From Candidatus Omnitrophota bacterium (lineage in GTDB: Bacteria > Omnitrophota > Gorgyraeia > Zapsychrales > Fredricksoniimonadaceae), in the NCBI GenBank assembly GCA_028865345.1, contig JAGWKL010000007.1, forward strand, positions 6,089 to 70,088: a DNA stretch of 64,000 nt, read 5' to 3'. Every line of letters starts with the position of its first letter. Within the stretch, counting starts at the first letter, position 1. The translations under genes were made by a program, and so were the position numbers. Below the pieces are notes generated by a model. The model did no database searches, had not been told where the DNA came from, and saw only the letters and a program-made list of their open reading frames with translations. Shown here in pieces: positions 1 to 33,286 of this stretch.

Positions 1-23
1 CTTTTTTATTCCCTGTTCTCATA

Positions 24-2813: not shown

Positions 2814-2833
2814 ATTTCCCATTCCTTTTGCCG

Positions 2834-5575: not shown

Positions 5576-5835
5576 TGGCTCGAGTTCCCGTTAGTAATGC
5601 TTCCGTGATAAACCGCGGACATCGGCAAAAAATAATAATCGTCTTGAGAGTTCAACTCATTCGACGGATCCAGGCTTTTGGTCAGTGATATGTCCTGGGC
5701 CACGCGCCGGTTGGCCAGATCCAGCCCCGCCCAGCGGAAAACCATCACCAGGCCGTAAACTATGAACATGATCACCACCACCGCGAAGGTGAATTCAATG
5801 GTCGACTGAGCTTTGGTGTCCCGTACGTTCATCAA
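5572..5835 (-). CDS. TadE-like pseudopilin (87 aa)
   Basis: N-terminus TKAQSTIEFTFAVVVIMFIVYGLV is a TadE/TadF-like prepilin-like hydrophobic segment with conserved E. 4-nt overlaps with both neighbours. Confidence 0.5.
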   Translation of the reverse strand: MMNVRDTKAQSTIEFTFAVVVIMFIVYGLVMVFRWAGLDLANRRVAQDISLTKSLDPSNELNSQDDYYFLPMSAVYHGSITNGNSSQ

Positions 5836-7817
5836 TTCCCTACCTTGTACCGCCCTGATGTGTTTGTCGCCCAGAAATGCCCGCGCAAGTCTTCGATGCG
5901 GCTGCGGACAAAAATCTTGTTCTGGGAAAGATCATAACATGTCGAGGCAATGTTGGTCTGAGAACTAAAACAGTTGTTGGTTATTCCGTCGACACAAACT
6001 TCCACAGGGTTGGGGGTTTTTCCGTCATTGCCCACCGTGGCAAGCGGCGTCGTTCCGTTGCAAAACCGCCCGGTATTATTGCTCAGCTGGATGACCCGCT
6101 GTATCAGGTCGATCGAGTCCTTTTTGTTTTGGCTGCGCACAAACTGGTCGGTTTCAGGGTTATACATTTTCCCATCCTGGATCAACAAATACGTCCCCCC
6201 GCGGTTATCGGTGGCATTGGAGCTGTTCTTGGTAAAGGTAAACACCTGGGCGTTGGCCTGCAAACCGGGCTGCGGACCGCAGGAATTGGCGTCCCAAGCC
6301 CCGTCAATGTCTCCACCATCCGGATCTTCATAAGAAACCACCGGATAGCCGTTTGAGTCCGTGGAAAGATTATAAATGGTGACTTCCTTCAGCCTTCCGT
6401 CTATATCATAGGTCGGATAAACATGGTTGGAACTGCTTAGCCCGATCTCTGCCGCCGAGGTCCCTGCCGTGGCAGCCCATTGCCAGGCAACGTAGGCGCG
6501 CATGCAACTGCCGGGAGGATTGCATCCCGGATTGGGGAATTGATTTATCACGCCCGCCACCGATGTCGATGTTGCTCCATTGCTCCCATAGACCCCCATG
6601 CGCAAAAGATCATACTGCATGACCCCATTGATATTGGTGGATGCTCCAAGGCCGTCGGTGGTGGGATTGCCCCAATAATCAAGCAAAGGCATGTCCGTGG
6701 ACAGTTCTTTATTCATACAAGCTGAAGTGCCGTGCGCAGTACAAGTGGGGGCCGAAGTGCTGAAGGTCAAATTCGAAGAATTGGCCGACCCTCCCGCCCC
6801 GCCGGGATTGGCCACCAGGGTATAAAACAATTTGTATTGCCTGCTGCCCTGCTCGATAATGCCCTCGATCGCCGCTAAATATCCCACAGCCTGTTGCGCA
6901 GTGAGGTGAAATACATTTTCATAAAGCCCTTCAAACGTCGTCCACGGCGTTTGATTCCATGATGCGTTGACCGTCGCTTGAGAGGTAGCTTCATCGCACT
7001 TGCTGGTTGTCGTAGGTGAAATGACATGGGCATTGGCCAGTTCCGTGAAAATAGTACAGGCATTGTTGGCCTCTTGCAGCTCTCTTCCTGCCGTGGTGGT
7101 CGCGGTTATCGGCGCTACCGGAGGATCGTTGGTAACAAGCGCGCTTTCCTTAAGAATGCTCTGGCCTCCCCACTCCCTTTGATTGCGGCAGGTCTGGTTC
7201 ATTTTGCACTGGGCCTCGGCTTTTTGCTGGCAGTCCTGCGGATTTCCGCCGGCCGTCAGGCAATCTTCCTGCTCCTGAGCGGAAGATATCGGCTGGCTGT
7301 TTTTATCGCACATAGCGGTACCGCCCTGGCCCGGCGGATAAATGGTTTTCCCGGCAACATAAGAAGCCATGGTAAACGGGAAATGCTGCCCGTCGATATA
7401 CACATCCATGATGGGCAAACTATTGTCGATATCGGAGGGACTATTGTTATCGATGGGATAAAGAAGGTTATAGGAAAAGGTTCCCGAACCGGAGACCATG
7501 AATGGTGTGCGGTCCAAAGCCCCGTATTTGCCGAAACCGGGAACAAGTCTGTCTTCTACAAAAAGCACCGAGGCGCTGTTATGCGCGGTGACCTGCGGGC
7601 TCATGCCGGGATTGGCCTTGGAATCGTTCCACGAAGCCAGCATGGCCATGCGCATGGCCTTAAAACTGATGTCCTGCTGATAGCCGTTGCTCACAGCAGT
7701 GCGGATGATCGTCCCCAAAATAAAAATGAGGATGGCCCCGAACACGGCAAGCTCGGTGACGGCCTGTCCCGCCGCGGGTGCGGGGCCAGACGCTTTTTGA
7801 AGGTCTCGCTTGGACAT
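5832..7817 (-). CDS. TadG/TadE-like large pseudopilin (~662 aa)
   Basis: Track ORF 5832..7886. Start taken at MSKRDLQ (ATG at 7815-7817, ATGA overlap with the stop of the upstream pilin gene, AGGTAGGG RBS). N-terminus AGQAVTELAVFGAILIFILG is a TadE-like motif. Confidence 0.5.
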   Translation of the reverse strand: MSKRDLQKASGPAPAAGQAVTELAVFGAILIFILGTIIRTAVSNGYQQDISFKAMRMAMLASWNDSKANPGMSPQVTAHNSASVLFVEDRLVPGFGKYGALDRTPFMVSGSGTFSYNLLYPIDNNSPSDIDNSLPIMDVYIDGQHFPFTMASYVAGKTIYPPGQGGTAMCDKNSQPISSAQEQEDCLTAGGNPQDCQQKAEAQCKMNQTCRNQREWGGQSILKESALVTNDPPVAPITATTTAGRELQEANNACTIFTELANAHVISPTTTSKCDEATSQATVNASWNQTPWTTFEGLYENVFHLTAQQAVGYLAAIEGIIEQGSRQYKLFYTLVANPGGAGGSANSSNLTFSTSAPTCTAHGTSACMNKELSTDMPLLDYWGNPTTDGLGASTNINGVMQYDLLRMGVYGSNGATSTSVAGVINQFPNPGCNPPGSCMRAYVAWQWAATAGTSAAEIGLSSSNHVYPTYDIDGRLKEVTIYNLSTDSNGYPVVSYEDPDGGDIDGAWDANSCGPQPGLQANAQVFTFTKNSSNATDNRGGTYLLIQDGKMYNPETDQFVRSQNKKDSIDLIQRVIQLSNNTGRFCNGTTPLATVGNDGKTPNPVEVCVDGITNNCFSSQTNIASTCYDLSQNKIFVRSRIEDLRGHFWATNTSGRYKVGN

Positions 7818-8134
7818 CAGTTCCCTACCTGTGTAGTGCCCGACTTCGTTTCCAAAGTATTCGACGTATCGATCCGGCTTGTCCATTCGCCGTAGGCGCT
7901 GTTATAGCTGCCCGGAGCGACCTGGACAATGGACGTCGCATTGGACTGTGTCGCGTACAGTATATTGGAATTGACCCATTGAGGGTCATACTGGCCGCCT
8001 ATCTCATCTGACGATGATTTCCAGCGGCCCTGAATGCCCCTTTTGACATAGTCCTTCATGGCCACCAGCACTCCGAGGATGATGATCATGATCACCGTGT
8101 ATTCCAGAATTGTCTGTCCTCGTATGTTTCGCAT
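7817..8134 (-). CDS. flp: Flp-type pilin paralog 8 (105 aa)
   Basis: MRNIRG|QTILEYTVIMIIILGVLVAM: Flp prepilin motif G/XXXXEY followed by a hydrophobic helix. Confidence 0.65.
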   Translation of the reverse strand: MRNIRGQTILEYTVIMIIILGVLVAMKDYVKRGIQGRWKSSSDEIGGQYDPQWVNSNILYATQSNATSIVQVAPGSYNSAYGEWTSRIDTSNTLETKSGTTQVGN

Positions 8135-8149
8135 AGGCCTTGGTCCTTA

Positions 8150-8506
8150 TTATTGTGGTGAAAACCCTCCGTTGGTAATGGTGTTGGTCATTGTCACAGA
8201 AGCCTCACTATAACCCGTCGTCGCCATGAAATGAGTGACGCCGCTGCCATTAATATACCCCGTTTCCGCGTTCCAATCGCCGGTGGTGGCGCCCATCTGC
8301 GTATTCGATGCCAGCATAAATCCTGTCTGGGGATTGGTAAAATCCTGGTCGGCGTTCTGCTGACTGCCCACCTGGTCCGCCGTCACCTTGACCAGGCTCT
8401 GCACCCCGCGCTTGATGCCCGTGCCCATATAATAGAGCGCCACCATCACCAGGCTGACGAGGATGGCGTATTCTACTATTGTCTGTGCATTGCGGGTAAA
8501 AACCAT
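8150..8506 (-). CDS. flp: Flp-type pilin paralog 7 (118 aa), Ala at -1
   Basis: MVFTRNA|QTIVEYAILVSLVMVALYY: Flp motif with Ala instead of Gly at -1. Confidence 0.6.
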   Translation of the reverse strand: MVFTRNAQTIVEYAILVSLVMVALYYMGTGIKRGVQSLVKVTADQVGSQQNADQDFTNPQTGFMLASNTQMGATTGDWNAETGYINGSGVTHFMATTGYSEASVTMTNTITNGGFSPQ

Positions 8507-8515
8507 TCAGTCCTT

Positions 8516-8935
8516 TCATGTCGCACAACCGGTCCCGTCACTGCAACACGGCGGCGGATTGGAACTGCTGCATACCGGAGGTAATTGGTGGCTGATGGAG
8601 GATATGTTGCTTGTGTCATTCACGGAACTGATATAGACCGCTCCCAGTTCCCCTGCGCTGCCGTTTGTTATTCCTTGATGATTGTCTGAATTCCGTTGCA
8701 CATCCGAGAAGGTCTGCATGTAATACGGTTCATATCCCCAGGAAACCCCGTTGGAAGCGGCCTGGCAATTGACATCGCAGGCATTGGCCGCCATCTCGAT
8801 CGCAAAGTTCCTGGCATCATGGATCCGCGCCTCAAAGGCCCTCCTCACCAGCACGGTCATAGCTGTCAGGGCCGCAACCACTATGAAGAAAACCATGACA
8901 TGCTCTGCCAAAATCGCTTGACCTTTGTCATTCAT
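8516..8935 (-). CDS. flp: Flp-type pilin paralog 6 (~139 aa) with Cys-rich C-terminus
   Basis: Track ORF 8516..8962 begins at a TTG. Better start is ATG at 8935 (MNDKG|QAILAEH) with AAGGTGAGG RBS. Motif has H instead of Y. C-terminus PPVCSSSNPPPCCSDGTGCAT. Shares ARIHDA and YEPYYMQ motifs with the pilin at 9613..9981. Confidence 0.55.
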   Translation of the reverse strand: MNDKGQAILAEHVMVFFIVVAALTAMTVLVRRAFEARIHDARNFAIEMAANACDVNCQAASNGVSWGYEPYYMQTFSDVQRNSDNHQGITNGSAGELGAVYISSVNDTSNISSISHQLPPVCSSSNPPPCCSDGTGCAT

Positions 8936-8968
8936 GCCCCGCCTCACCTTCTCCAAAGACAAACGGCC

Positions 8969-9166
8969 TCACATCCCATTCGCCGCATTTTCCTGCAAGT
9001 AGGTGGCTGCGTTGAGCATCCCTTGGGTCGTCTGGTTGAACACGCTGTTCAAGCTGCTTTGAAAAGAACCTGTCCCCTTGCCTGTCGTGAACAGAACGAC
9101 CACCACGATCACGGCCGTGACCAGCAGGATGTATTCCACCAGGCTCTGACCTTTACGTGCGCGCAT
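8969..9166 (-). CDS. flp: Flp-type pilin paralog 5 (65 aa)
   Basis: MRARKG|QSLVEYILLVTAVIVVVVLF, canonical Flp motif; AGAGGA RBS. Confidence 0.7.
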   Translation of the reverse strand: MRARKGQSLVEYILLVTAVIVVVVLFTTGKGTGSFQSSLNSVFNQTTQGMLNAATYLQENAANGM

Positions 9167-9197
9167 GCGTTTGTCCTCTATTGACGGCCTATATCAA

Positions 9198-9223
9198 CGA
9201 GGGGGGAAGAAAATCCCCCCCTC
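9198..9223 (-). promoter_or_regulatory. Intra-operon GC hairpin between flp4 and flp5
   Basis: Perfect inverted repeat CGAGGGGGG-AAGAAAAT-CCCCCCTCG (9-bp G/C stem) in the 70-nt gap between the pilin genes at 9236..9574 and 8969..9166. Confidence 0.4.
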
Positions 9224-9235
9224 GTTTGGACTCTG

Positions 9236-9574
9236 TTAGGCGGCGGTGTTCCCTCCCCAGAATTCCTGCTGGGTGTTAAGGATGACCGAGTTCTCCGTCG
9301 TGTTGGTCGATTCACCCGACCCCAAGATGGAAGTCGAGGAATTTCCTGCGTTGAACACTTCTTCTGTATCGCTGGAAGTGTTGACGATCTTGATCACGTT
9401 GGTATTGCCGTCAGAATACTGGTCGCCGATATCGTCGGCGGCGCTCTTCAGGCGCCCCTGCACGCCGCGTTTGATATAGACCTGAAGGGTCAGCAAAGCG
9501 CCGACCACAACGACGATCATTACCGAGTATTCCAGGAAACTTTGACCGCGTTTTTGGTTAAGATATTGCAACAT
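9236..9574 (-). CDS. flp: Flp-type pilin paralog 4 (112 aa)
   Basis: MLQYLNQKRG|QSFLEYSVMIVVVVGALL; GGAGG RBS upstream. Confidence 0.7.
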   Translation of the reverse strand: MLQYLNQKRGQSFLEYSVMIVVVVGALLTLQVYIKRGVQGRLKSAADDIGDQYSDGNTNVIKIVNTSSDTEEVFNAGNSSTSILGSGESTNTTENSVILNTQQEFWGGNTAA

Positions 9575-9612
9575 AGGATTCCTCCTTAAAGATATATCGT
9601 TGAAGTCTTAGG

Positions 9613-9981
9613 TTATTCAGACTGTTGATTCCCGCTGTCATAATTACTGTACGTTTGATTCTCAGACCCGGTCCTGATCCTGTTGTTGGCGGAATCCTGT
9701 GCGACCAAGTCGTGCCCTAAGCGTTTAGCACTAACGCTGTTGCTGGATACGTCATAATTGCTCTGCATGTAATATGGCTCATACTGCGTGTCATTGCCCA
9801 GACCGATATCCGAGTTGCCGGTGGCATTGGCCATATACGTTGCTGCATCGTGGATACGGGCTTGTATGGCGCGCTGGGCATAGGTCTGCATGGCAATGAT
9901 GCCTGCGACCACCAGGGCGATCAAAAGCGCGTATTCCGCGAAGTGTTGTCCTTTTTTATTCTTAAGGAAATTTCTCAACAT
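9613..9981 (-). CDS. flp: Flp-type pilin paralog 3 (122 aa)
   Basis: MLRNFLKNKKG|QHFAEYALLIALVVAGII; GGAGG RBS. Shares ARIHDA..YEPYYMQ motifs with paralog 6. Confidence 0.7.
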   Translation of the reverse strand: MLRNFLKNKKGQHFAEYALLIALVVAGIIAMQTYAQRAIQARIHDAATYMANATGNSDIGLGNDTQYEPYYMQSNYDVSSNSVSAKRLGHDLVAQDSANNRIRTGSENQTYSNYDSGNQQSE

Positions 9982-10027
9982 AAGTTCCTCCTATATTAGT
10001 TCGTAGAGATTTTGTTTAAGCTCCTCG

Positions 10028-10276
10028 CTATTGAGTCGGATTGACACTATAGCCAGAGGGAGCGCCACTGTCGGTACTGGTGTATGCGCCATGTGAACCG
10101 GCATACTGTGACGTTTCACTGTTCATTTCCGTCACCGCCGCGTTGTAGGTGCTGTTGAGCGTGTTCTGGAACGGACCGTTTTTGCTGGTCACAAAGGCCA
10201 CAATAACGATAAGGACCGCGGTCACAACCAGGATGTATTCCACCGTGATTTGACCTCTTTTGTTCTTTATATGCAT
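10028..10276 (-). CDS. flp: Flp-type pilin paralog 2 (~82 aa)
   Basis: Track ORF 10028..10288 starts MEGIM, but GGAGGGGATTATG shows those codons are the RBS. True start is MHIKNKRG|QITVEY at 10276. Confidence 0.7.
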   Translation of the reverse strand: MHIKNKRGQITVEYILVVTAVLIVIVAFVTSKNGPFQNTLNSTYNAAVTEMNSETSQYAGSHGAYTSTDSGAPSGYSVNPTQ

Positions 10277-10348
10277 AATCCCCTCCAAAATTCCCGTACT
10301 GCATCCTCCACGTAAATTAAACGCCGTGTAAAGGAACAGGGAATATAG

Positions 10349-10504
10349 TTAATTCAACGAATCCTCAGTAATCATCTTCTGTTGGGCTTGCACGGAACGG
10401 AACACGTAGGTGCTCAACAGCGCCAAGGCTGCTGAGATCAAGGCCACGACGATCGCGTATTCGATCAAGTTTTGTGCTTTGATACCGTTTAATTTTCGGA
10501 TCAT
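10349..10504 (-). CDS. flp: Flp-type pilin paralog 1 (51 aa), not in ORF track
   Basis: Manually translated: MIRKLNGIKA|QNLIEYAIVVALISAALALLSTYVFRSVQAQQKMITEDSLN. 156 nt ATG..TAA, below the 60-aa cutoff of the track. Canonical-size Flp with Ala at -1. First gene of the pilin array. Confidence 0.6.
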   Translation of the reverse strand: MIRKLNGIKAQNLIEYAIVVALISAALALLSTYVFRSVQAQQKMITEDSLN

Positions 10505-10548
10505 CGCCCCTTACCTTTACGTGCCAGAAGATCAATTAGACCTTCCCC

Positions 10549-10567
10549 CTGCTTGTTGTTCAAGCAG
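10549..10567 (-). promoter_or_regulatory. Inverted repeat in 5' leader of first flp gene
   Basis: CTGCTTG-TTGTT-CAAGCAG (7-bp arms) about 45 nt upstream of the flp1 ATG. Confidence 0.3.
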
Positions 10568-10606
10568 GAGCGAGGAAAAACTAAAACACTAACTGGTCTT
10601 TCATCT

Positions 10607-10630
10607 ATGTAAAAGCCCCTAAGGGCTGTC
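10607..10630 (-). terminator. Putative rho-independent terminator after the 373-aa HTH gene
   Basis: On the minus strand, AGCCC-TTAG-GGGCT stem followed by TTTTACAT. Short 5-bp stem. Confidence 0.35.
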
Positions 10631-10733
10631 GGTACAATTGATGTTTACTTTGGTAGAAGTATGCCATATATAATAAAGCCTGTCAACCCCGCGGAAACAA
10701 AAATAACCCGCTCCCCGATTCGGCGACTAAAGC

Positions 10734-11855
10734 CTAATCTTTTAAAATTTCGACCTTAACCAGCCTATTTTGGTCATCATGCAGATACATCGCATTTAAT
10801 TTCTCTGCGGCTTCATTGAGCATGGTAATATTCTCATAACTATTTGTCGTTAATATGTTTATTATATTAATTTCACTGTTGACCTTGTCGAATCCTTTCA
10901 ACTTTAATATATTATCCATAACATCATCGTTTACATTATGTTGTGTAAAAAAAATGTCTTTTGCTCTCTCTGAAACATTCTTTTTATAGCTCTCCACAAA
11001 TACAATATCTTTTAACATAAAAACTCTTTTACACTCCACAATTTCATCGAAATATGCTATAACATTGTCTTTGTAATCCACTATCAAAATTTTTGTAATT
11101 TTGAGCCCGGCTTGAGCATCCATGCAAGATTTAAAAAGCATTTCATCCGAAACTCTATGAACTACCAGCGGCCGGATATTATTAATAAGCCCGTCCACTG
11201 CTTCCATGATGCAACGTTCAATGGGGAGCGGCAGATCAATAAAGACCTCCTTGTTGTTTTCCAAAACAACCTTGATCCCTTTACAGTATGTCAGGCAATA
11301 TTCCCAATCCGTTCCCTTGACGTTCTCTTCTGAGAAAATTCCTAAATCCCAAAGTGCCGCCCTTAAAAAAACCCTTCCGGCCCCGTCGTATTCCGCAGAA
11401 ATCTCAAAACTTTCGGGCTTGATTTGCCGTTCTTCTGTAATCGTCGGGGCTTTTTCTTCTTCCGTCGATCCGGGGCCGGAGGACGGAGGCTCTTTATGAA
11501 CGTTTAGATCCTGGCCGCCCGCCTCCATTTCCTGAGAAACGCCTTTTGCCGAATCCGGCAGTACGCTGACTTCAGGAATAATTGTTTCCGGCAGCAATTT
11601 GACTTGGGAAAGGCTGGCCTGAATCTGCCTCTTCTTCTCTTGAGGTATTTCAAACTTATTTTTTGGCTTACGGCCGCGAGGCGTCATGATGCCCGCCTCT
11701 TTGAGCACATCATGGACCGACGATTTGGAAAGTTTAAGTCCGAACTTTTGAGAGGCTGATTCAGCTAATTGGCGGCAGGAAGCAAGAGGGTTGGCTTGTC
11801 GCTGGTTTATGATGAATCCGACAACCTCTTCCTTTAACTTATAGGTAACACCCAT
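10734..11855 (-). CDS. Hypothetical protein with N-terminal HTH-like domain (~373 aa), AT-rich
   Basis: Track ORF 10734..11951. The first 32 codons are AT-junk overlapping the XRE gene, so start taken at MGVTYKLKEEVVGFIINQRQANPLASCRQLAE (HTH-like, ~70 aa). Then an acidic low-complexity linker and an unrecognised ~230-aa C-terminal domain. GC content far below surrounding genes. Confidence 0.4.
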   Translation of the reverse strand: MGVTYKLKEEVVGFIINQRQANPLASCRQLAESASQKFGLKLSKSSVHDVLKEAGIMTPRGRKPKNKFEIPQEKKRQIQASLSQVKLLPETIIPEVSVLPDSAKGVSQEMEAGGQDLNVHKEPPSSGPGSTEEEKAPTITEERQIKPESFEISAEYDGAGRVFLRAALWDLGIFSEENVKGTDWEYCLTYCKGIKVVLENNKEVFIDLPLPIERCIMEAVDGLINNIRPLVVHRVSDEMLFKSCMDAQAGLKITKILIVDYKDNVIAYFDEIVECKRVFMLKDIVFVESYKKNVSERAKDIFFTQHNVNDDVMDNILKLKGFDKVNSEINIINILTTNSYENITMLNEAAEKLNAMYLHDDQNRLVKVEILKD

Positions 11856-11938
11856 AAAATTCCGTTCATAATAATGTCCAGTCTGGACATTATTATAACA
11901 AAAAAATATGGAGAAACAATTTAAAAAAAGGAATGATT

Positions 11939-12217
11939 TTATATTTCCCACATAACAATATTTTCAGAACTACTTTTTGCTTCTTTGTTCTGTTTGTGGT
12001 TTGATTTGGATCGCAGAAGATTTACAGGAGTGGTTTTGAGGGCCTTGGCGAGTTTTTCAATATTCAGCAGGGTAATATTTATTTCCGCCCGCTCTATCAT
12101 TCCGATGTAATTCCGATGAAGGTCCGCAAGTTCGGCAAGTTTTTCCTGAGAAATCCCTTGCCTGCGCCGCTCCATCCGTATCTTCTTGCCGAAGCTTATA
12201 AGTAATCTTTTATTCAT
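11939..12217 (-). CDS. XRE-family helix-turn-helix transcriptional regulator (92 aa)
   Basis: RRRQGISQEKLAELADLHRNYIGMIERAEINITLLNIEKLAKAL is a classic Cro/C1-type HTH. AT-rich, co-located with the 373-aa HTH gene. Confidence 0.6.
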   Translation of the reverse strand: MNKRLLISFGKKIRMERRRQGISQEKLAELADLHRNYIGMIERAEINITLLNIEKLAKALKTTPVNLLRSKSNHKQNKEAKSSSENIVMWEI

Positions 12218-12525
12218 TGATTTCCCTAAATTTGCGTGTAGTATATATATTTACTTTCATTATTTCTACACAGCATCGTGTGGACTATTATATTAGTCAC
12301 AACATTAAGATAAGATGAAAAACAGGGTGAGGAGCAAAAGCGGAGAAAAGCGTGACTCTTCCCAAATCACGGCGTGAAATATTTAAGATCGACCAAATGA
12401 AAATGGTCTGGAAAATCGGGGACAACGAAGTCCGCTGCGACGGCGCGGTCCACTATGTCTGGGTCCCCTCTGCGGACCATGTGCAGCAAATCGGCCCCTG
12501 TGACTGCAAAAGCAAGTCCAAAAAA

Positions 12526-12861
12526 TCATAGCCGGACCTGGTCACCGATCCGTGTTTGAGAAGCAATGATGGTCCCCGCCGGCAATTCGATGGCGTAGGA
12601 TGCCCGGAAGAATACCGGCGACAGGCGGAAAGGTTTGATCCCCTCGCAAAGCCCCACCACCTTGTCCTTCCGGTCGCAAAAGATCACATCAATAGGAAAT
12701 TTCATAAAAAACATATGGATGGATTCGCAATGGGGAATGACCAGGGCGTGATTCAGGGGGAGTTGGGTCCTTCCAAGCAATCCCTTCGAACGCTGCCAGA
12801 AATTCCGGGCGGTTTCGACGGAGGAGGCAATAACGGTGTCGCGGGTTGCGTTACAGATCAT
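12526..12861 (-). CDS. DUF192 (COG1430) family protein (111 aa)
   Basis: Sequence family resemblance only. 4-nt overlap with the upstream CpaE-CpaF gene suggests translational coupling. Confidence 0.45.
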   Translation of the reverse strand: MICNATRDTVIASSVETARNFWQRSKGLLGRTQLPLNHALVIPHCESIHMFFMKFPIDVIFCDRKDKVVGLCEGIKPFRLSPVFFRASYAIELPAGTIIASQTRIGDQVRL

Positions 12862-15023
12862 ACGCCGGCGGGGGCCTCAAAAATGGTCTTGCTGATCGAA
12901 ATCCCGCGGGTGGTCAGGTCTTCAAAACATTTGGGCACATAGCCGGTGGCCGCGTATTCCCCCATGTTCCGGCCTTCTGCGTCGACGCCTTTCTGGACGA
13001 ACACAAAGATGTCCTTGATCTCCGGAAGACCTTCCACCATCTTTCCGGTCAGCTCGGAGATCTGGGTCACCTTGCGCGACCCGTCGGAAAAACGGTTGAT
13101 CTGCACAATGATGTGGATCGCTGAGGCGGCCATCTCATAAATAGCGCGCAGCGGCAGTTCGATGCCCGACAAAAGGACCATGGACGACATACGCGACAGG
13201 GTGTCCCTGGTCGTATTGGCATGCAGGGTCGTCAGGGACCCGTCGTGACCGGTATTCATGGCCTGCAGCATGTCCAGCACTTCGGGCCCGCGGCACTCGC
13301 CGATGATGATCCTGTCCGGACGCATACGCAGCGTATTGACGAAAAGCTCCCTGATCGTCACCTTGCCCCGGCCTTCGATGTTGGCCGGACGGCTTTCCAG
13401 CCTCGCCCAATGTGTTTTGACCAGGCGCAATTCCGCTGCGTCTTCGATGGTGATAATGCGTTCATTGTCCGGGATGAAATGGGAAATGATGTTCAGAAGC
13501 GTCGTTTTACCCGCGCCCGTCCCGCCGGAGACGACGATGTTCCTGCGGCCGATAACGCAGGCGTTCAGAAAATCCGCCATGGGCTGCGAAAGGCTTTTGA
13601 ACCGCGTCAGCAAGTCCTCAATGGTATAGCGGTCCTGTGAAAATTTACGCACGGTGATCATGGGCCCGTTCAGGGACAACGGCGGGATGATCGCGTTGAT
13701 ACGGGACCCGTCGGACAGGCGCGCGTCGACCATCGGGGTCGATTCGTCCACACGACGGCCTAAAGGAGCTATGATACGGTCGATCGTGGCGCGGACCTGA
13801 TCGTTGGAAATAAACCGCTTGTTGGTCAAATAAATCTTGCCGTTTTTTTCTATGAAGACCTCGTCTTTATTATTGACCATGATGTCCGTGACGCTTTCGT
13901 CGGCCAGAAAGTCTTCCAGAGGGCCAAGCCCCAAAGCTTCGTCGACGATTTCCTTGACTATTTTAGCGCGTTCCTCATGGGTGGAAAGGAAGGTCCCCGA
14001 GGCCTCCGCCAAAAGCTCGGTGACGACTTTTTCGGCGGCCCTGCGCAGGTTGGCGACTTGGGCAGGATCATTCAAGACCTCCTGCGACATTTTCTGCAGG
14101 TTCATGCGCTCAACCAAACCGTTATGCACGGCGCGCTTGACTTTAATGACCTCGTCTTCCTCTTTTTTGAAATCGACCCCGGCATCGACGCCCGCAGGCG
14201 TGATGCCGAATTTCTCCCAAAAGGCGTTGCTCTTTTGGCCCGATTCATCCCCGGTGGCACGCACCCTGAGGACATCGCTGGCCTGCACATACAGCTTATC
14301 ATCGTTGAGCGCATGGGCGATCTCAAAAAAACATTCCGACACCTTTGCCTTCGGGCTGTCCATGACACAGGGAACGCCCCGGTTGAGGGCGAGGCCCACC
14401 GTCTTGCCGTCAGAAGGTATCAAAGAGAAAACGTCGCAGGCCAGGGCTTTCTTGACCTCCTGCCAGGCGACACCGCCGCGGCTTTCGGCGCGGTTTAAAA
14501 TCAGGTTTACCATCTTCAACGGATAATGCAAGCCCTGGAGGATGTCCAGGCAGGTCTTCACCTGGTAAACCGCCAGGACATCGGGAGTGCCGACCAAAAA
14601 AATGAGGTTGGAAGAATCCAGGACGCTGATGAAGCTTTCACTGAAGGTGCTTCCTCCGTCGACAATAATGCAGTCGAATTGAGGGGCCGCCTTCTTGAAA
14701 AACAGACGCAGATTATCGGAGGTGATGTGGCCGATCTGCTGGGGGGTTCTTACCGCAGGCAGGAAACACAGGCCGCTCGGGTGGGGGATGCATTTGCCCT
14801 TCAGCGTCTCAGGCGATCTCTCCAGGTCCGCCAAAATATCGACCAGGCAAAGCGACGGTTGCAAATTCAGCATGCGCGACATGTCCTGGGAAGCCTGAAG
14901 ATTCAGGTCAACGATCAGTGTCTTTTTGCCCTTAAGGCTAAGCGCACAGGCTATATTGACGGCAATAAAGGTCTTTCCAACCCCTCCTTTGTTGCCGAAT
15001 ATGGTAATGATTCTGGCCGCCAT
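12858..15023 (-). CDS. cpaF: CpaE/TadZ-like ParA ATPase fused to CpaF/TadA secretion ATPase (721 aa)
   Basis: N-terminal ~260 aa: IITIFGNKGGVGKTFIAVNIACALS is the MinD/ParA deviant Walker A typical of CpaE/TadZ. C-terminal ~460 aa: GGTGAGKTTLLN Walker A, GECRG, TGHDGSLTTLHAN His-box are T2SS-E/CpaF/TadA hallmarks. No receiver-like domain. Confidence 0.75.
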   Translation of the reverse strand: MAARIITIFGNKGGVGKTFIAVNIACALSLKGKKTLIVDLNLQASQDMSRMLNLQPSLCLVDILADLERSPETLKGKCIPHPSGLCFLPAVRTPQQIGHITSDNLRLFFKKAAPQFDCIIVDGGSTFSESFISVLDSSNLIFLVGTPDVLAVYQVKTCLDILQGLHYPLKMVNLILNRAESRGGVAWQEVKKALACDVFSLIPSDGKTVGLALNRGVPCVMDSPKAKVSECFFEIAHALNDDKLYVQASDVLRVRATGDESGQKSNAFWEKFGITPAGVDAGVDFKKEEDEVIKVKRAVHNGLVERMNLQKMSQEVLNDPAQVANLRRAAEKVVTELLAEASGTFLSTHEERAKIVKEIVDEALGLGPLEDFLADESVTDIMVNNKDEVFIEKNGKIYLTNKRFISNDQVRATIDRIIAPLGRRVDESTPMVDARLSDGSRINAIIPPLSLNGPMITVRKFSQDRYTIEDLLTRFKSLSQPMADFLNACVIGRRNIVVSGGTGAGKTTLLNIISHFIPDNERIITIEDAAELRLVKTHWARLESRPANIEGRGKVTIRELFVNTLRMRPDRIIIGECRGPEVLDMLQAMNTGHDGSLTTLHANTTRDTLSRMSSMVLLSGIELPLRAIYEMAASAIHIIVQINRFSDGSRKVTQISELTGKMVEGLPEIKDIFVFVQKGVDAEGRNMGEYAATGYVPKCFEDLTTRGISISKTIFEAPAGV

Positions 15024-15140
15024 AATGAATTTTTATTGTACCATATTTTTTGATTTTGTCGCAGATAAAAAAGAGGTCGCTTTGCCTTCCCCCTAACTCG
15101 GGAGGTAGCGTGTCCCTTTGATGAAATTCTAATGGCAAAA

Positions 15141-15300
15141 TTCTTTCTCGGCGTCGGCTCGCAGGGGGGCAAATTTCTTTTGAACATCAGCTTGCACAGG
15201 GGTAAATTCTTTTTGGACATCAGCCTGCAAAGGGGCGAATTCTTTCTCGGCGTCGGCCCTCAGGGGAATAAATTCTTTCTCAACATCTGCCGCCTGCAGT
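15141..15300. repeat. 33-bp tandem repeat (~4.8 copies) forming 11-aa repeats in ORFs on both strands
   Basis: Units TTCTTTCTCGGCGTCGGC..CAGGGG..AAA alternate between A/B subtypes (A-B-B-A-B). Minus frame gives ADxEKEFxPLx repeats (track ORF 15129..15611). Plus frame gives GKFFLxISLxR repeats (track ORF 15132..15476, ATG start, GC3 ~74% versus ~45% on the minus frame). Confidence 0.6.
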
Positions 15301-15429
15301 TCACGGCATTGGGGCCCTTTGGCCTTATCACAGGGGCTTTGTGCGGAAGCGCCCGAAGAAATCTGTGCCCCGCAAGGGCAAGGGACGCAAAGGATCAACC
15401 AGAAAATTACTGTAGTCAGGTACAGGTAA

Positions 15430-17235
15430 TTACGAAGCAAAGCCCTTCTCCGCCGGAGATTGACCGTCAGGGTTAAAAACAATAGGAACCGTAAATTCAA
15501 GTTCTCGCTGGTCCATCCCCGGGCTAAAGGCGGCAAAAGGAGCGGCTGATTTAGCGGCCTGCATGGCGTCCTGATCCAGGACATTGCTTCCCGAAGACTG
15601 GGCCACGTCAATAGAATCCAGGGAGCCGTCTTTAAGGATATGCAGCTTCAATTTGACCGTGCCTCCCAGCTCGGCGCCGCCCACCGGCCGGGGATAAATG
15701 AGGGTCCTTGAAATCTTTTCCTGGACCATGCGTGCATACGCTGTCGCGGCCGGGAGCCCTTTCAAATTCTCAACGGGTAGGGGTGCCGGCGCTGAATAGG
15801 CCGCGGTGTATTGCGGCGCCAATGGAAAAGAAGGAGAATACGTCTCCGGATTTTCCGAGGGAGCGGTAGGAGCCGGCTTGGCCGGCCAATCGGAAACGAT
15901 GGGCGCGTGTTCATACCTCGAAACTATTTCATTCCAGGAACTGCGCTCCTCGGACGTCGGCATCACCAGTTCTTTTTGCGCGTATTTCGTTTGCGTCAGC
16001 ACCGTCGGCGTCAAAATAATGACCATTTCCGTATTGGCATCCGCGGGCTCGCTTTTGTTTCTGAAAAGCCCCCCTAAAAGCGGAATTTTAGATAAAAACG
16101 GCACATCGGTCTCATTCACGCTGTCTTCATATTTGATCAGCCCCGCCAGGGCAATGGTCTGCTTGTTGTCCATCAGCAGGTCCGTCGAAGCTGTCCGGGT
16201 GACAAAGGCCACGTTGCCCCCATTGCTGGATATGGGAGTGGCTGAATCCACGTCCCGGATGTCCACGTTTAACTGCACATCTATTTTTCCGTCTTGAATG
16301 GTCGGAGTGACCGACAGGTTGACGCCGTATTGGGCATAGGTCGTGTTATTGGTCAGGGTGCTGCCAGTGGTGCTCACTGTTGTGGATTGGATGGGGATCT
16401 CGCCGCCTACCAGGAAACTGGCAGGCTTGCCGCTTTCCACCACCAACCGCGGCTTGGAAATCAGCCTGGCCTTGCCTTCCTTGACCAAGGCATTCACCGT
16501 GGCTTCCAGCGACGTAGTGCGCATGAAGTGCCCTATCTTGAACAAATCCTTGAACTTGTCTCCCGTGGGAAGGGTTTCTCCATAGTTAAGGTTCACCTGC
16601 CCGCTGTTGCTTGTCCCGGTTGAGCCCGTTGTGCCCGAAGAAGAAGTCCCCCACGATATCCCCAATTCTCTTTCCAGGGTCACGTTGATCTCCACGATCT
16701 GCATGTCCACCTGGATCAATTCGTTGTTCTTTTCTTTCTCGACCAGATTCAACAAATTATCGCTATACGGCGTCAGGACGTCCGCCATCCGGTTTTTGTT
16801 GTCTTCAGACAAGGAGCCTGTGAGCACCACCTTGCCTATATCGAGATTTATATCTTCGGAAACCCCTTTGACGCCGGCTTCCTTCAGGAGCTCCTGCACA
16901 AGGGCCTTGAGGGCGTTGAGGTCCTGGGCGGCCACGCGAACCTTGACGCTGTGTTTGCCGCCCGCATCCCAGAAAAACAGGACCGTTGAGCCGGCTTTCT
17001 TGGCTATCAGGGAAACTTTATCGTTCTGAACGTCTGAAATGTCCGCCACCGAGGGGTCGGTCACCGAGACCCGGGTCAACCCGCTGGCAGGGACCGACTG
17101 GATGTCGCCCACCACCATGTCAATAACGTCTGCCGACTGCATATCATCGTCGGCAGATAACGGCGGCATATATGCCACTGATACCGCAAGGCCAAACGCG
17201 ACGATAAAAATTTTCCGTAAAAGGTTGGATTTCAT
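15430..17235 (-). CDS. cpaC: CpaC/RcpA-type secretin with C-terminal Pro-rich linker and TonB_C-like domain (601 aa)
   Basis: N-terminal pilus-formation domain. Secretin C-terminus (DVPFLSKIPLLGGLFRNK..TEMVIILTPTVL) ends near residue 415. Then PAKPAPTAPSENPETYSPSFPLAPQ linker and YARMVQEKISRTLIYPRPVGGAELGGTVKLKLHILKDGSLDSIDVAQSSGSNVLDQDAMQAAKSAAPFAAFSP resembling a TonB C-terminal domain. Confidence 0.7.
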   Translation of the reverse strand: MKSNLLRKIFIVAFGLAVSVAYMPPLSADDDMQSADVIDMVVGDIQSVPASGLTRVSVTDPSVADISDVQNDKVSLIAKKAGSTVLFFWDAGGKHSVKVRVAAQDLNALKALVQELLKEAGVKGVSEDINLDIGKVVLTGSLSEDNKNRMADVLTPYSDNLLNLVEKEKNNELIQVDMQIVEINVTLERELGISWGTSSSGTTGSTGTSNSGQVNLNYGETLPTGDKFKDLFKIGHFMRTTSLEATVNALVKEGKARLISKPRLVVESGKPASFLVGGEIPIQSTTVSTTGSTLTNNTTYAQYGVNLSVTPTIQDGKIDVQLNVDIRDVDSATPISSNGGNVAFVTRTASTDLLMDNKQTIALAGLIKYEDSVNETDVPFLSKIPLLGGLFRNKSEPADANTEMVIILTPTVLTQTKYAQKELVMPTSEERSSWNEIVSRYEHAPIVSDWPAKPAPTAPSENPETYSPSFPLAPQYTAAYSAPAPLPVENLKGLPAATAYARMVQEKISRTLIYPRPVGGAELGGTVKLKLHILKDGSLDSIDVAQSSGSNVLDQDAMQAAKSAAPFAAFSPGMDQRELEFTVPIVFNPDGQSPAEKGFAS

Positions 17236-17240
17236 TGAAA

Positions 17241-18089
17241 TTAAAGTTCCCTGCCGCCTCTAAAAATCTGGATCATGGGCTTGCTTTCTTCCGGCTTGGC
17301 TGTGGGCACTTCATCCGGGTTCTCAAGATCTAGCCCCTGGTTTTTCAGGACATAGTCCGCCAGGGTCTTCCATGTGTCTGCTTTGACCATTCGATGTTCC
17401 ATATCATCAGGTGAACGCAACGCCAGGTCCAGCTTGCCGTTTTTATCCGCAAATTCCAAAAGTCCTGCTTCCTGAGGACTCACCGCAAAAGTGATTTTCA
17501 GGGAATTGGCCGCCTGCTGCTTATCATAGTCGCCCAAGTCTTCCTCATTGGTATTAACGGCCAGGACCTGCAGGTCCTGGAAAACCATCGCCGTCACGGT
17601 TTGCTTATTGGCATATTGCGACGGGACGCTCATCTCGCCGATCACATCCACAAAATCCCCCGGATTGATCATGCCCCCCACGGCGGCGAGCGAATCGATC
17701 TTCACCGTCACGGCGCGCATGCCCACCGGCGTCCTTAAGGCCAGCGACGGCTTGTGGGCTTCTTTTTTGACACTCACCTGCGTCTGCGGCCGCATCTTAG
17801 ATATTTGCTGCTCGGAAATCTTCAGCGCGGCGATTTGTGTCTTTAATTGCTGTTCCTCCTGGCTTTTTTCCCGTTGCATTTCCTGCGCCAGTTGGGCCAT
17901 TTGCTGCTGGTCTTGCTGCTGGATCGCGGAGACCATTTCCTTTTCTTTGGAGGCGTACTGTTCAGCCAGGGCCTGGGTCTTGTTGTTAATCGCAGTTTGG
18001 ACGTAATTGCTGGCCAAAAACACCGCCACCAGCCCTAAGGCCAAAGCGCCGAGGATAATGAAAAGTTGCTTTTTGTTTTCGAAAGGCAA
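17241..18089 (-). CDS. cpaB: Flp pilus assembly protein CpaB/RcpC (282 aa)
   Basis: N-terminal TM (LFIILGALALGLVAVFLA), Gln-rich coiled-coil, SAF-like segment GMRAVTVKIDSLAAVGGMINPGDFVDVIG. Confidence 0.65.
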   Translation of the reverse strand: MPFENKKQLFIILGALALGLVAVFLASNYVQTAINNKTQALAEQYASKEKEMVSAIQQQDQQQMAQLAQEMQREKSQEEQQLKTQIAALKISEQQISKMRPQTQVSVKKEAHKPSLALRTPVGMRAVTVKIDSLAAVGGMINPGDFVDVIGEMSVPSQYANKQTVTAMVFQDLQVLAVNTNEEDLGDYDKQQAANSLKITFAVSPQEAGLLEFADKNGKLDLALRSPDDMEHRMVKADTWKTLADYVLKNQGLDLENPDEVPTAKPEESKPMIQIFRGGREL

Positions 18090-18116
18090 TTTTCCCTCTC
18101 TTTGTTCGGGTCTTAG

Positions 18117-19139: not shown

Positions 19140-19262
19140 TCATTCCTCCTCAAATGTCCTTCAAGTATACCTGCTTTTTTTAAAAAAGCAAGGTCCCGGG
19201 CCTGATTCGCCCGTCGGATTTAAGATTTTTTTGTTGTAACCCATTCTCTCTCAATAAATAAA

Positions 19263-28410: not shown

Positions 28411-28576
28411 AACCCTCTATATAGTGCTGTTCGTTTAAAGTTCGCAAACTTAGAAGTAATCATATTAGTTGTTGTGGATAAGTTGGACCAGAAACAAAAT
28501 ATCTAATAATTTCAACAACTTACAATTATTAACACCTGTGGACAACTTTGGGATAATACAAATTATTTATCCACAA
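28411..28576. promoter_or_regulatory. DnaA-box cluster (oriC candidate, dnaA-dnaN spacer)
   Basis: AT-rich. TGTGGATAA (~28473), TGTGGACAA (~28537), TTATCCACA (~28567) are perfect or 1-mismatch DnaA boxes. Confidence 0.45.
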
Positions 28577-30623: not shown

Positions 30624-30626
30624 ATC

Positions 30627-32395: not shown

Positions 32396-32435
32396 TGCCA
32401 GTTTCACGTGGAACTTATTTGGAAGGACAGGCTGT

Positions 32436-33224: not shown

Positions 33225-33286
33225 AAATGTGACAATTGGCCACCATGTTTTTGGCAGTCAAATGGTAACGTTTTTGGAGATTCAGA

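Follow-up and report, generated by a model that had tools for sequence, protein, structure and literature searches.

Low-GC stretches inside otherwise uniform gene clusters raise the question of whether they were acquired from elsewhere or belong where they stand. The question arises in a 64,000-nt stretch of a Candidatus Omnitrophota genome (GCA_028865345.1, contig JAGWKL010000007.1; hereafter the window), where a gene for a 373-aa protein and a small XRE-family regulator gene separate Tad-like pilus machinery from an array of Flp-like pilins. A first-pass annotation had taken the two genes for a horizontally acquired island. We arrive at a different account, which as a whole we hold at a probability of roughly 0.6: the 373-aa gene is an old part of the Omnitrophota Tad-like pilus locus, passed on vertically and standing between machinery operon and pilin array; its product is, on the sequence evidence, best read as a negatively autoregulated, locus-specific regulator; and the XRE gene is part of a recent insertion beside it.

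Composition and conservation of the locus

Both open reading frames lie on the minus strand at the positions first given for them (Table 1), and both are AT-rich as claimed: GC is 51.7% (0.517) in the whole window, 41.5% (0.415) in the 373-aa gene and 40.5% (0.405) in the XRE gene. The 3′ half of the larger gene had also been singled out correctly, with GC of 0.34 falling to 0.29 over the last third (codons 261-373), whereas the flanks, put at ~58% GC, measure 52-56%. The deficit is visible in the 500-nt intervals 10601-11100 (GC 0.328, z = -3.6) and 11801-12300 (GC 0.36, z = -2.95). The AT bias extends to synonymous sites in both genes, with GC3 values of 0.444 (373-aa gene) and 0.441 (XRE) versus 0.60-0.76 in flanking genes. 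A quantitative profile, proposed earlier as a check, confirmed the deficit but not its uniqueness. YidC, ParA and ParB, at 30.6-34.1 kb of the window, have GC of 0.36-0.41 and GC3 of 0.35-0.38, and because they deviate as much, the deviation is not specific to an island.

Relatives carry the same signature. The 373-aa gene lies 7-13 GC points under its flanks in nearly all close relatives, and its GC3 is 0.21 below that of the CpaE/F fusion gene at 8/8 close loci and 0.07 below it in a clade encoding a longer form of the protein (6/8). Across genomes, GC3 of the gene is 0.28-0.45 versus 0.48-0.73 for CpaE/F, low whatever GC3 the genome has. Residues 261-373 of the window protein are encoded with a GC3 of 0.33, and F/Y/M/I/N/K make up 45% of them; the lowest GC of all falls in the ~340 nt immediately upstream of the pilin promoter. 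The long-form clade does not show the 3′ gradient. Low GC is best read as a long-standing trait of the 373-aa gene, common to relatives and most pronounced where constraint on the protein is weakest, and not as a mark of recent transfer: a deep-rooted gene would have kept its AT-richness as the rest of the genome moved to higher GC.

Gene order points the same way. All retrieved loci share the order PpiC, CpaB, secretin, CpaE/F fusion, DUF192, 373-aa gene, Flp-like pilins and giant proteins, and the 373-aa gene keeps its place between DUF192 and the first pilin gene even where CpaE/F is only 52-61% identical. The sample comprises 28 loci retrieved via the 373-aa protein (~24 distinct Omnitrophota contigs) and 2 via DUF192, so that its constant presence is biased by the loci having been found through the protein itself; a DUF192-seeded metagenome scan added only those 2 informative loci. 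The spacer between DUF192 and the HTH gene varies among relatives from -1 to 5,545 bp. The idea of an inserted island fails for the 373-aa gene, which stands at this spot in all related loci retrieved and therefore displaced nothing recently, contrary to the suggestion that ancestral genes had made way for it. Comparison with relatives accordingly speaks for conserved synteny against a strain-specific island, although the 373-aa gene is not at native GC there, its low GC being conserved too. Convincing flanking direct repeats, another proposed check, were not found, nor were convincing terminal inverted repeats; no recombinase, integrase or transposase gene lies beside the stretch (ORF list and Pfam), and no tRNA adjoins it, the nearest being at 21976.

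The canonical Tad/Flp order is flp-tadV-rcpCAB-tadZABCDEFG in Aggregatibacter, with Cpa counterparts in Caulobacter. Like it, the Omnitrophota locus has CpaB/RcpC, a secretin, TadZ-like and TadA/CpaF ATPase modules and Flp-like pilins. Unlike it, the Omnitrophota locus has its TadZ-like module fused to the CpaF module and a TonB_C domain on its secretin, and DUF192 and the HTH gene stand where tadB/C follow tadA. The remark that the AT-rich genes sit where tadB/tadC would be expected is therefore right with respect to the canonical order, but no relative examined has tadB/C there: TadB/C are absent from the window and from 10 kb around the locus in relatives, and no recognizable TadV, T2SSF-type platform or prepilin peptidase gene occurs within 10 kb either side. 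The 373-aa protein was itself considered as TadB/TadC (T2SSF) and rejected, there being no T2SSF match and an AF2 model with a soluble alpha/beta domain. Omnitrophota Tad complexes have been described by Seymour et al. 2023 (PMC10066038), where no mention is made of a helix-turn-helix protein, a transposase or DUF192.

Table 1. Features of the AT-rich stretch and its surroundings, in coordinates of the window.
Feature	Position	Strand	Basis or remark
First Flp-like pilin gene, 51 aa	10349..10504	-	Pfam Flp_Fap 0.0016, under curated cut-off
Structured 5′ leader of first pilin gene, conserved	10505..10650	-	Alignment; RNAalifold, 14 sequences
Leader hairpin AGCCC-UUA-GGGGCU + UUUU	10611-10627	-	Alignment, RNAalifold
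Sigma-70 promoter of pilin array, TTGACA-N17-CATACT + TG extension	10657..10686	-	10/12 matches (promoter scan)
373-aa gene	10734..11855	-	ORF; conserved Omnitrophota family
C-terminal domain of 373-aa protein	about residues 151-373, nt 10737-11405	-	No database matches
Disordered Pro/Glu/Ser linker of 373-aa protein	about residues 86-150	-	AF2
Paired/transposase-type HTH of 373-aa protein	residues 1-85, nt 11601-11855	-	Pfam below cut-off, Foldseek
Perfect 14+14 palindrome	11868..11896	.	Repeat search
Conserved palindrome core	11874-11890	.	Putative operator of 373-aa gene; overlaps likely transcription start
Extended -10 TGT-TATAAT of the 373-aa gene's own promoter	11892..11900	-	Read from sequence
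XRE-family HTH gene, 92 aa	11939..12217	-	Pfam HTH_3 (PF01381) 1.5e-13, above curated cut-off
AT-rich divergent promoter region, XRE/orf59	12218..12351	.	GC 0.336; promoter scan; conserved with L009
TAGAAA-17-TATACT promoter	12268-12240	-	Bracketed by inverted repeat TGTGTAG...CTACACG
orf59	12352..12531	+	ORF; overlaps DUF192 end by 6 nt; divergent from XRE
DUF192 gene	12526..12861	-	Pfam DUF192 3.7e-20; marks end of machinery operon; precedes HTH gene in all loci

Build and family of the 373-aa protein

The three-part build first read from the sequence (HTH, acidic linker, C-terminal domain) is reproduced by an AF2 model with a mean pLDDT of 85, in which the HTH spans residues 1-85, residues 87-127 score <50 and the C-terminal domain (~150-373) reaches ~97. 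The HTH matches HTH_Tnp_Tc3_2 (1.4e-5; 25.7 bits against a cut-off of 31.5), HTH_32 and HTH_33, all under the curated Pfam cut-off, as well as NCBIfam transposase HTH models, again below threshold. By fold it is similar to the paired domain of Pax6 (Foldseek: probability 1.0 over 52 columns, rmsd 1.2-1.4 Å). Similarly, 35/49 long-form members match an IS630 HTH model below threshold. The N-terminus of the family is a highly conserved basic module, and the HTH is adjoined by an invariant, AT-hook-like PRGRKP arm (alignment A1). The N-termini of IS630/Tc1-mariner transposases and the Pax paired domain have the same layout, three HTH helices and then a basic GR(K)P arm for the minor groove, and they provide the best sequence matches and, with Pax6, the best fold match, the sequence matches all falling under curated cut-offs.

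The C-terminal domain has no match in Pfam, NCBIfam, PDB or BFVD, and a profile of alignment A1 returned 0 matches among PDB sequences at E up to 10. PADLOC gave no match for the protein, and PHROG only weak ones to families of unknown function (E 0.024, 0.054); no toxin, defence or transposase-catalytic family in Pfam, NCBIfam, PADLOC or PHROG matches it. By reading of the sequence, no transmembrane segment or signal peptide is evident. We collected 92 full-length homologs at 46-61% identity, and an exhaustive search with a C-terminal profile put the family at >=831 clusters at 50% identity, the 150 best of the 831 all being family members; a word-indexed search with an HTH-trimmed profile gave 5 matches, all in the same family. 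By hhalign, the short (~350 aa) and long (~600 aa) forms are homologs over their whole length (probability 100%, E = 1.3e-45), the short form of this window having no counterpart of the long form's Y..RW segment. Most members appear on one contig apiece in the hit tables, as expected of a single-copy gene. Identity to the window protein declines from 82% over residues 1-85 to 66% over 151-260 and 42% over 261-373, and the C-terminal domain is 56% identical to that of the closest relative, compared with 86% for CpaE/F and 51-60% for the giant proteins. Overall, this is a so far undescribed family, predicted to bind DNA, with a fast-evolving C-terminal domain.

Promoters, palindrome and the XRE insertion

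Between the conserved extended -10 element of the 373-aa gene's own promoter and its ATG lies a perfect palindrome, ATAATAATGTCCAG-A-CTGGACATTATTAT, with the conserved core ATGTCCAG-N-CTGGACAT. It is unique in the window, and relatives keep it immediately before the ATG. Across 325 kb of related loci, TGTCCA-N3-TGGACA occurs at 11 loci and at this position only, and the palindrome hexamer is present in 21/24 upstream regions against a background of 0.078 per 100 nt. None of the other promoters in the window has the palindrome, the half-site does not exceed chance there, and the pilin promoter lacks the full palindrome. Two loci, L012 and L014, are without it; there the 373-aa gene abuts DUF192. 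Relatives show TTGACGC-N17-TATAAT followed by the palindrome, and in this window the ancestral -35 TTGACGC has degraded to TTGTTT. Most relatives have no Shine-Dalgarno sequence at the 373-aa gene. As RNA, the palindrome could act as a 5′ hairpin instead of an operator (-16.5 kcal/mol, z = -4.7); its few variants (L008, L010, L017) break the pairing without compensation.

Autoregulated HTH repressors of the lambda cI/Cro type have an operator that overlaps their own promoter. Like such repressors, the 373-aa gene has a palindrome with ~8-nt half-sites between -10 and ATG, conserved together with the HTH, to which binding is putative. Unlike in cI/Cro, the HTH is of the paired/transposase type and the effector domain is without known relatives.

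Some 50 nt past the stop codon of the 373-aa gene begin the promoter and leader of the pilin array. The promoter is conserved in 14 aligned loci, with the spacer TATTATATATGG invariant within the close clade, and is kept in distant loci as TTGACA-N17/18-TGnTATACTT. It is unique in the window, with one copy per locus unless the pilin cassette is duplicated, and upstream of about -50 no conserved nucleotide motif was seen. A sigma-54 promoter, suggested by a TGGCAT within the element, was dropped because the -12 TTGC element is absent. The leader has an MFE of -46.9 kcal/mol (z = -2.26) and, besides the hairpin of Table 1, a second helix UUCCUC...GGGGGAAGGGUC upstream of an AAGGUGA Shine-Dalgarno sequence; Rfam has no match in 10000-12800. 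The terminator that had been described downstream of the 373-aa gene was not called. Its stem and T-run sit inside the pilin leader, downstream of the sigma-70 promoter, and the leader hairpin at 10611-10627 is probably what was meant. The first pilin is 76-84% identical in close relatives, among the matches listed.

On the other side of the 373-aa gene, the XRE protein matches PF01381 with 51 bits (cut-off 23) and the PADLOC Control_protein profile at 6.6e-21, with residues 4-70 aligned to profile positions 4-71 of 77. Among the retrieved loci the XRE gene occurs only at L001/L009 (86% identity), as does a counterpart of orf59 (77% identical), and the two genes together are confined to this genome and the closest one, GCA_028870995. 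The orf59 gene has a native-like GC3 of 0.65 and no match in Pfam, PADLOC or PHROG. As first reported, an AT-rich leader with small palindromes lies upstream of XRE, where GC is 0.336 and inverted repeats are present (12218-12351). Like restriction-modification C proteins, XRE is small, has a near full-length PADLOC match and an AT-rich upstream region with inverted repeats around the promoter; unlike theirs, its neighbors (orf59, DUF192 and the 373-aa gene) are without restriction enzyme or methyltransferase matches in Pfam and PADLOC. The notion of a recent insertion thus holds for XRE and orf59, found in two genomes and in a spacer of variable length, but not for the 373-aa gene. Together, XRE, the AT-rich operator region and orf59 look like a lineage-specific insertion into the DUF192-to-HTH spacer, the only recent addition to the locus. 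An XRE/toxin pair is excluded because every other genome except one has the 373-aa gene with no XRE beside it; with no toxin or defence family match either, the toxin-antitoxin-like or defence-like label falls away. XRE would probably be an autoregulated, C-protein-like repressor, and its transcript may continue into the 373-aa gene, which in this genome has a decayed -35 of its own.

Competing explanations and a model of regulation

The original proposal, in which both genes form a recent horizontal island of regulatory, toxin-antitoxin-like or defence-like character that perhaps displaced tadB/tadC, draws on the real GC and GC3 deficit, on the likeness of XRE to restriction-modification controller proteins and antitoxin-type HTH proteins, and on the confinement of XRE and orf59 to two genomes. 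Conserved synteny refutes it for the 373-aa gene, found in the same position across deep divergence in every related locus retrieved. Its low GC is common to relatives and matched by the core genes YidC, ParA and ParB; direct repeats, inverted ends, an adjoining tRNA and an integrase were not found; the protein has no PADLOC match and only the weak PHROG ones; all other genomes, bar one, have the gene without XRE; and no relative has tadB/C at this position. For the pair of genes we consider the proposal very improbable. The AT-richness might instead be functional in itself, the gene body and especially its 3′ third being kept AT-rich as a platform, bent or bound by nucleoid proteins, that tunes pilin promoter activity. 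Persistently low GC3 whatever the genome's own, and the minimum of GC just upstream of that promoter, would suit such a role, but the long-form clade lacks the 3′ gradient, motif conservation at the pilin promoter ends at about -50, and the AT-rich part is the least conserved and rich in AT-codon amino acids, which fits relaxed constraint and AT-biased mutation pressure. We give this little credence. Improbable too is a cytoplasmic accessory of pilus assembly, binding for example the CpaE/F ATPase or pilin precursors, with an HTH used for protein contacts or nucleoid anchoring. A fixed position in a machinery locus without recognizable TadB/C or TadV within 10 kb each side is compatible with it, as is a C-terminal domain that evolves as fast as the giant surface proteins (56% versus 51-60%, with CpaE/F at 86%). 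Against it stand an own promoter with a palindrome at the likely transcription start, an arrangement typical of repressors, the highly conserved basic DNA-binding module with its PRGRKP arm, and the lack of an evident transmembrane segment or signal peptide in the sequence.

A further possibility, doubtful but with more to recommend it, is that the protein is a domesticated, catalytically dead transposase, with an IS630/Tc1-type HTH, a degenerate IS4-like DDE/RNase H-like core and a palindrome that is the relic of a transposase-binding end. The HTH matches transposase-type models only (IS630 in 35/49 long members; HTH_32, HTH_33, HTH_Tnp_Tc3_2). In Pfam and NCBIfam searches on 10 and then 49 long-form members, sub-threshold matches appeared to IS4_1 (3/49 members, E about 0.009), IS701, IS1380 and ISLre2, those to IS4_1 and IS701 mapping, where positions were listed, to the long-form segment ILTN...Y..RWPNLEE. 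For the long form, AF2 models strands and helices in the order beta-beta-beta-alpha-beta-alpha-beta, then a beta-rich insert and a helix, which by eye appears RNase H-compatible, with no computed match. However, no Pfam DDE model was matched and no Pfam or NCBIfam DDE match reached its cut-off. Foldseek searches with both models found nothing below E = 0.09 except the HTH in the PDB, which is expected to include solved DDE transposases such as Tn5, and BFVD gave no match. IS4-type transposases are very numerous, and spill into that much larger family would be expected of a detectable relative, yet the exhaustive profile search returned 831 proteins only. A single acidic residue is near-invariant (D266 of P0096), so there is no catalytic triad, and the short form of the window lacks the Y..RW segment. 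In contrast to IS630/Tc1 transposases, the family has no detectable DDE domain, a fixed chromosomal position, a single contig in most entries and no terminal inverted repeats. This explanation concerns origin, and is compatible with a present role as regulator.

In the preferred account, the 373-aa protein would bind ATGTCCAG-N-CTGGACAT, probably as a dimer, and repress its own transcription, as proposed because the palindrome sits between the extended -10 and its own start codon. Expression would be held low by this repression, by AT-rich codons and, in most relatives, by the lack of a Shine-Dalgarno sequence. The C-terminal domain may sense a signal and couple it to output from the strong, conserved promoter and leader of the pilin array; the first pilin gene, directly downstream, is the likely regulatory target. 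The earlier suggestion of control over the pilin array is plausible in view of the predicted DNA-binding module, the operator-like palindrome and the adjacent pilin promoter. Since the full palindrome occurs only at the gene's own promoter and is missing at that of the pilins, control of the latter is supported by adjacency alone.

Once explained, the foreign island first described is mostly ordinary, and it cautions that low GC need not mean horizontal transfer. The Omnitrophota, a group of uncultivated and ultra-small bacteria that probably live as predators or parasites, are thought to contact their hosts by means of Tad-like pili (PMC10066038). A conserved, locus-embedded, putative DNA-binding protein with a candidate operator offers a testable handle on the switching of pilus expression, as do the sharply conserved pilin promoter and leader. 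More tentatively, and with the odds against it, the phylum-wide family may serve the Omnitrophota Tad-like pilus as its dedicated master switch, the C-terminal domain being a new sensor fold and the gene being held AT-rich and poorly translated by selection for low copy number. If so, a protein with a C-terminal domain for which Foldseek finds no relative in the PDB would control the presumed host-attachment organelle of these nanobacteria.

Inherited low GC at the pilus locus

Base composition across the window averages 51.7% GC, with a standard deviation of 5.3 points among 500-nt windows, and positions 10601-11100 (32.8%, z = -3.6) and 11801-12300 (36%, z = -2.95) are among its lowest troughs. 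ORF calling reproduced the coordinates that the first-pass annotation had assigned to the 373-aa helix-turn-helix (HTH) gene and the XRE gene, and their AT-richness is real at 41.5% and 40.5% GC against the window value, with flanks at 52-56% rather than the ~58% first estimated. Within the HTH gene, GC is 49% in the 5′ half, 34% in the 3′ half and 29% over codons 261-373. GC3 values of 0.444 (HTH gene) and 0.441 (XRE gene) fall short of the 0.60-0.76 seen in the pilins, DUF192, CpaE/F, secretin, CpaB, PpiC, MDH, GyrA and GyrB, so amino-acid composition alone is not the source of the low GC. Equally deep troughs occur elsewhere in the window, at 28.0-28.9 kb and 30.6-33.8 kb, over the core genes (Pfam) dnaN, yidC, parA and parB. 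The Pfam-confirmed yidC, parA and parB have GC of 0.36-0.41 and GC3 of 0.35-0.38, with dnaN at GC 0.45, yet the adjoining dnaA, gyrB and gyrA are normal in GC. The window appears to span a replication-origin region, and we noted there a second, larger AT-rich block (28000-28900 and 30600-34150).

The HTH gene had been proposed to belong to an inserted island. Proteins of the window locus were mapped by tblastn onto a context sample of 4 contigs read directly and 24 loci from a one-genome-per-species scan, and all loci share a single gene order: (GST, CN-hydrolase, MDH), PpiC, CpaB, secretin-TonB_C, CpaE/F fusion, DUF192 (always next after the ATPase gene) and HTH gene, followed 3′ by the 51-aa Flp-like pilin, more pilins and then giant proteins. 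This order is kept even where CpaE/F identity drops to 52-61%; the HTH gene at those loci encodes 440-620 aa with the same N-terminal MGV[TI]YKLK. A DUF192-seeded metagenome scan added 2 loci of the same type, both with the HTH gene. The same position in every retrieved locus and a low GC common to relatives argue against insertion of this gene: its strain specificity is contradicted by conserved synteny, while its low GC stands as an anomaly that relatives also display. Furthermore, neither the flanking direct repeats contemplated under the island proposal nor terminal inverted repeats or an adjacent tRNA were found at the AT-rich stretch. At two related loci, L015:6001-7073 and L016:6001-7090, the HTH gene is broken (ORFs of 92 and 182 aa) with tblastn similarity running across the break; indel errors at homopolymers of the AT-rich sequence, rather than pseudogene formation, probably explain the breaks in these nanopore-derived MAGs.

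In nearly all close relatives the HTH gene likewise lies 7-13 GC points under its flanks. Its GC3 is 0.21 lower than that of CpaE/F in 8/8 close loci and 0.07 lower in the long-form clade (6/8 loci). Across loci, CpaE/F GC3 ranges from 0.48 to 0.73 with HTH gene GC3 at 0.28-0.45; the composition of the HTH gene did not rise with that of the host genome. GC and conservation drop in parallel along the protein, with identity to the window protein of 82% over residues 1-85, 66% over 151-260 and 42% over 261-373, a segment composed of 45% F/Y/M/I/N/K at GC3 0.33. In its simplest reading, this pattern would reflect weak constraint together with expression that is probably low and the usual mutational bias towards AT. 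That the AT-rich 3′ end, which lies ahead of the pilin promoter, has a role of its own at the DNA level strikes us as unlikely.

The HTH protein family and its pilus setting

We retrieved 92 full-length homologues of the 373-aa protein (46-61% identity), and all those with a named source are attributed to Omnitrophota. Profile-profile comparison (probability 100%, E = 1.3e-45) shows short (~350 aa) and long (~600 aa) forms to be homologous along their entire length, save for a helical insert of ~95 residues and a segment of ~190 residues that are missing from the former. Searching exhaustively with a profile of the HTH-trimmed long form returned 831 clusters at 50% identity (704 with E up to 1e-10); judged by profile similarity, the family is thus large yet bounded.

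The accompanying machinery includes a 721-aa ParA/MinD-type (TadZ/CpaE-like) domain fused to a CpaF/TadA secretion ATPase (CpaE/F) and a 601-aa secretin with a C-terminal TonB_C domain, both fusions being conserved across Omnitrophota loci. No T2SSF-type platform gene (TadB/C) or prepilin peptidase (TadV) was detected in the pilus locus (window 1-19200) or within 10 kb around it in relatives L001-L004. Tad complexes in Omnitrophota have been described from TadB/C, RcpA and TadZ phylogenies (Seymour et al. 2023, PMC10066038); that study mentions neither the HTH gene, DUF192 nor any helix-turn-helix protein, nor is any such protein mentioned in a 2026 preprint that deals with complete genomes of Omnitrophota.

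An AlphaFold2 model built on a 50-sequence alignment predicts, with confidence, an HTH at residues 1-85, then a disordered stretch (87-127, pLDDT <50) and, very confidently, an alpha/beta domain (~150-373, pLDDT ~97). The HTH resembles the Pax6 paired domain (Foldseek probability 1.0, 52 columns, rmsd 1.4 Å); this paired-type HTH is highly conserved in the family and its PRGRKP arm is invariant. The C-terminal 220 residues match no family model, and the modelled C-terminal domain has no PDB match by Foldseek; the effector domain is without detectable relatives.

Descent from a domesticated transposase is an attractive lead, though we consider it rather unlikely. The HTH of the family resembles the transposase type, and the N-terminus of the 373-aa protein matches HTH_Tnp_Tc3_2 (1.4e-5), HTH_32 and HTH_33 as well as IS630 and IS481 models over their N-terminal part, all sub-threshold. 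A few long members give sub-threshold matches to IS4, IS701 and IS1380 models, which, where positions are given, sit around an ILTN...Y..RWPNLEE segment, and by our reading the strands and helices of the modelled long form follow an order compatible with an RNase H-like core. However, no DDE model reached its cut-off, no acidic triad is conserved, Foldseek against PDB and BFVD gave no match bearing on such an origin, and the exhaustive search reached no further than the 831 clusters, the 150 listed all being family members, so that no significant result backs it.

XRE, orf59 and the spacer upstream of the HTH gene

The XRE protein is a standard HTH_3 (Pfam, 51 bits versus a cut-off of 23). Models of restriction-modification controller proteins match it best (PADLOC, E = 6.6e-21), yet no restriction or methylase gene was found nearby. 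Among the retrieved loci, counterparts of XRE (86% identity) and the divergent orf59 (77%) occur only in GCA_028870995, the closest genome, consistent with recent insertion of this pair; the initial interpretation was right for XRE and orf59 and mostly wrong for the large gene. Upstream of XRE, both genomes keep TAGAAA-17-TATACT flanked by TGTGTAG...CTACACG, a bracketed promoter that would suit autoregulation.

The DUF192-to-HTH spacer, where orf59 is situated in the window, varies from -1 to 5,545 bp. Locus L005 carries a 5.5-kb insert there (L005:457-6000) with four large ORFs, which indicates that insertions are tolerated; one of these ORFs resembles an outer-membrane receptor by N-terminal sequence. 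The spacer of 3 distant loci holds a 77-aa double zinc-ribbon gene on the opposite strand, and reading both sequences revealed no apparent similarity to orf59.

Features of the pilus locus, its relatives (L-numbered loci) and the origin region
Feature	Position	Strand	Remarks
Pilin promoter	10657-10686	minus	GGGTTGACA-N5-TATTATATATGGCATACTT; downstream of 373-aa stop codon; identical in 14 loci
Structured 5′ leader of 51-aa pilin gene	10505-10650	minus	~150 nt; conserved; also L002, L005-L016
Palindrome	11868-11896		perfect 14+14; inverted-repeat search
86-aa pilin-like protein	10028-10288		
CpaE/F fusion	12858-15023		
Secretin-TonB_C	15430-17235		
dnaA	28577-29923	minus	
yidC	starts 30627	plus	diverges from dnaA across ~700 bp gap
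Zinc-ribbon genes	L020:318-548, L024:5559-5792, L025:5411-5650	minus	76-79 aa; CPYC...CxHC...CxxCG...CxxC

Promoters, palindrome and a candidate regulator

In nearly all relatives, TTGACGC-N17-TATAAT lies upstream of the HTH gene and leads directly into AATGTCCAG-N-CTGGACATT, with the ATG 3-6 nt past this palindrome and no Shine-Dalgarno sequence. In the window, the ancestral -35 TTGACGC has decayed to TTGTTT and the extended -10 TGT-TATAAT is kept; given this decay, read-through from XRE may matter for the HTH gene in this genome. Approximately 14 extra nt (11853-11870, minus), an insertion that relatives lack, separate the palindrome from the conserved start codon, and an out-of-frame ATG within them begins a short upstream ORF of 11 codons that runs over the true start.

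The palindrome occurs once in the 64-kb window, and TGTCCA-N3-TGGACA occurs in 325 kb of related loci at this position only (11 loci). The hexamer is found in 21/24 upstream 100-nt regions versus a background of 0.078 per 100 nt, and TGGACA/TGTCCA half-sites persist at distant loci, differently arranged. The few palindrome variants disrupt pairing instead of preserving it and so speak more for a site bound by protein than for an RNA hairpin, although the RNA would fold well (-16.5 kcal/mol, z = -4.7).

The pilin promoter has 10/12 consensus matches and a TG extension. In the leader, a hairpin with a U-run (10611-10627) comes soon past the promoter and a second helix precedes the Shine-Dalgarno sequence. 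A terminator scan called nothing past the HTH gene, and the stem and T-run annotated there as a terminator are most likely this hairpin. Distant loci keep the promoter as TTGACA-N17/18-TGnTATACTT, a covarying hairpin, then GGGGCAAAGGTCATCT...GGCGATG, and have a related element immediately ahead of the ATG. Nothing in Rfam matches the leader, a possible cis-regulatory RNA not yet described. Promoter and first pilin genes are tandemly duplicated in L006 (L006:7075-9100) and L016, and the 86-aa pilin-like protein scores above cut-off for the archaeal Class III signal peptide model PF04021.

The conserved paired-type HTH and PRGRKP arm, the palindrome across the region where the gene's transcription would begin and the strong, conserved pilin promoter next to the gene together suggest a regulator. 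Acting at the palindrome, the HTH protein would repress its own promoter, and its C-terminal domain would sense some signal in response to which the protein would control the pilin array. The pilin promoter has no copy of the palindrome, and the putative link to the pilin genes is drawn solely from adjacency. Overall, these sequence features point to the HTH protein as an undescribed, phylum-wide and probably autoregulated DNA-binding protein of the Omnitrophota pilus locus.
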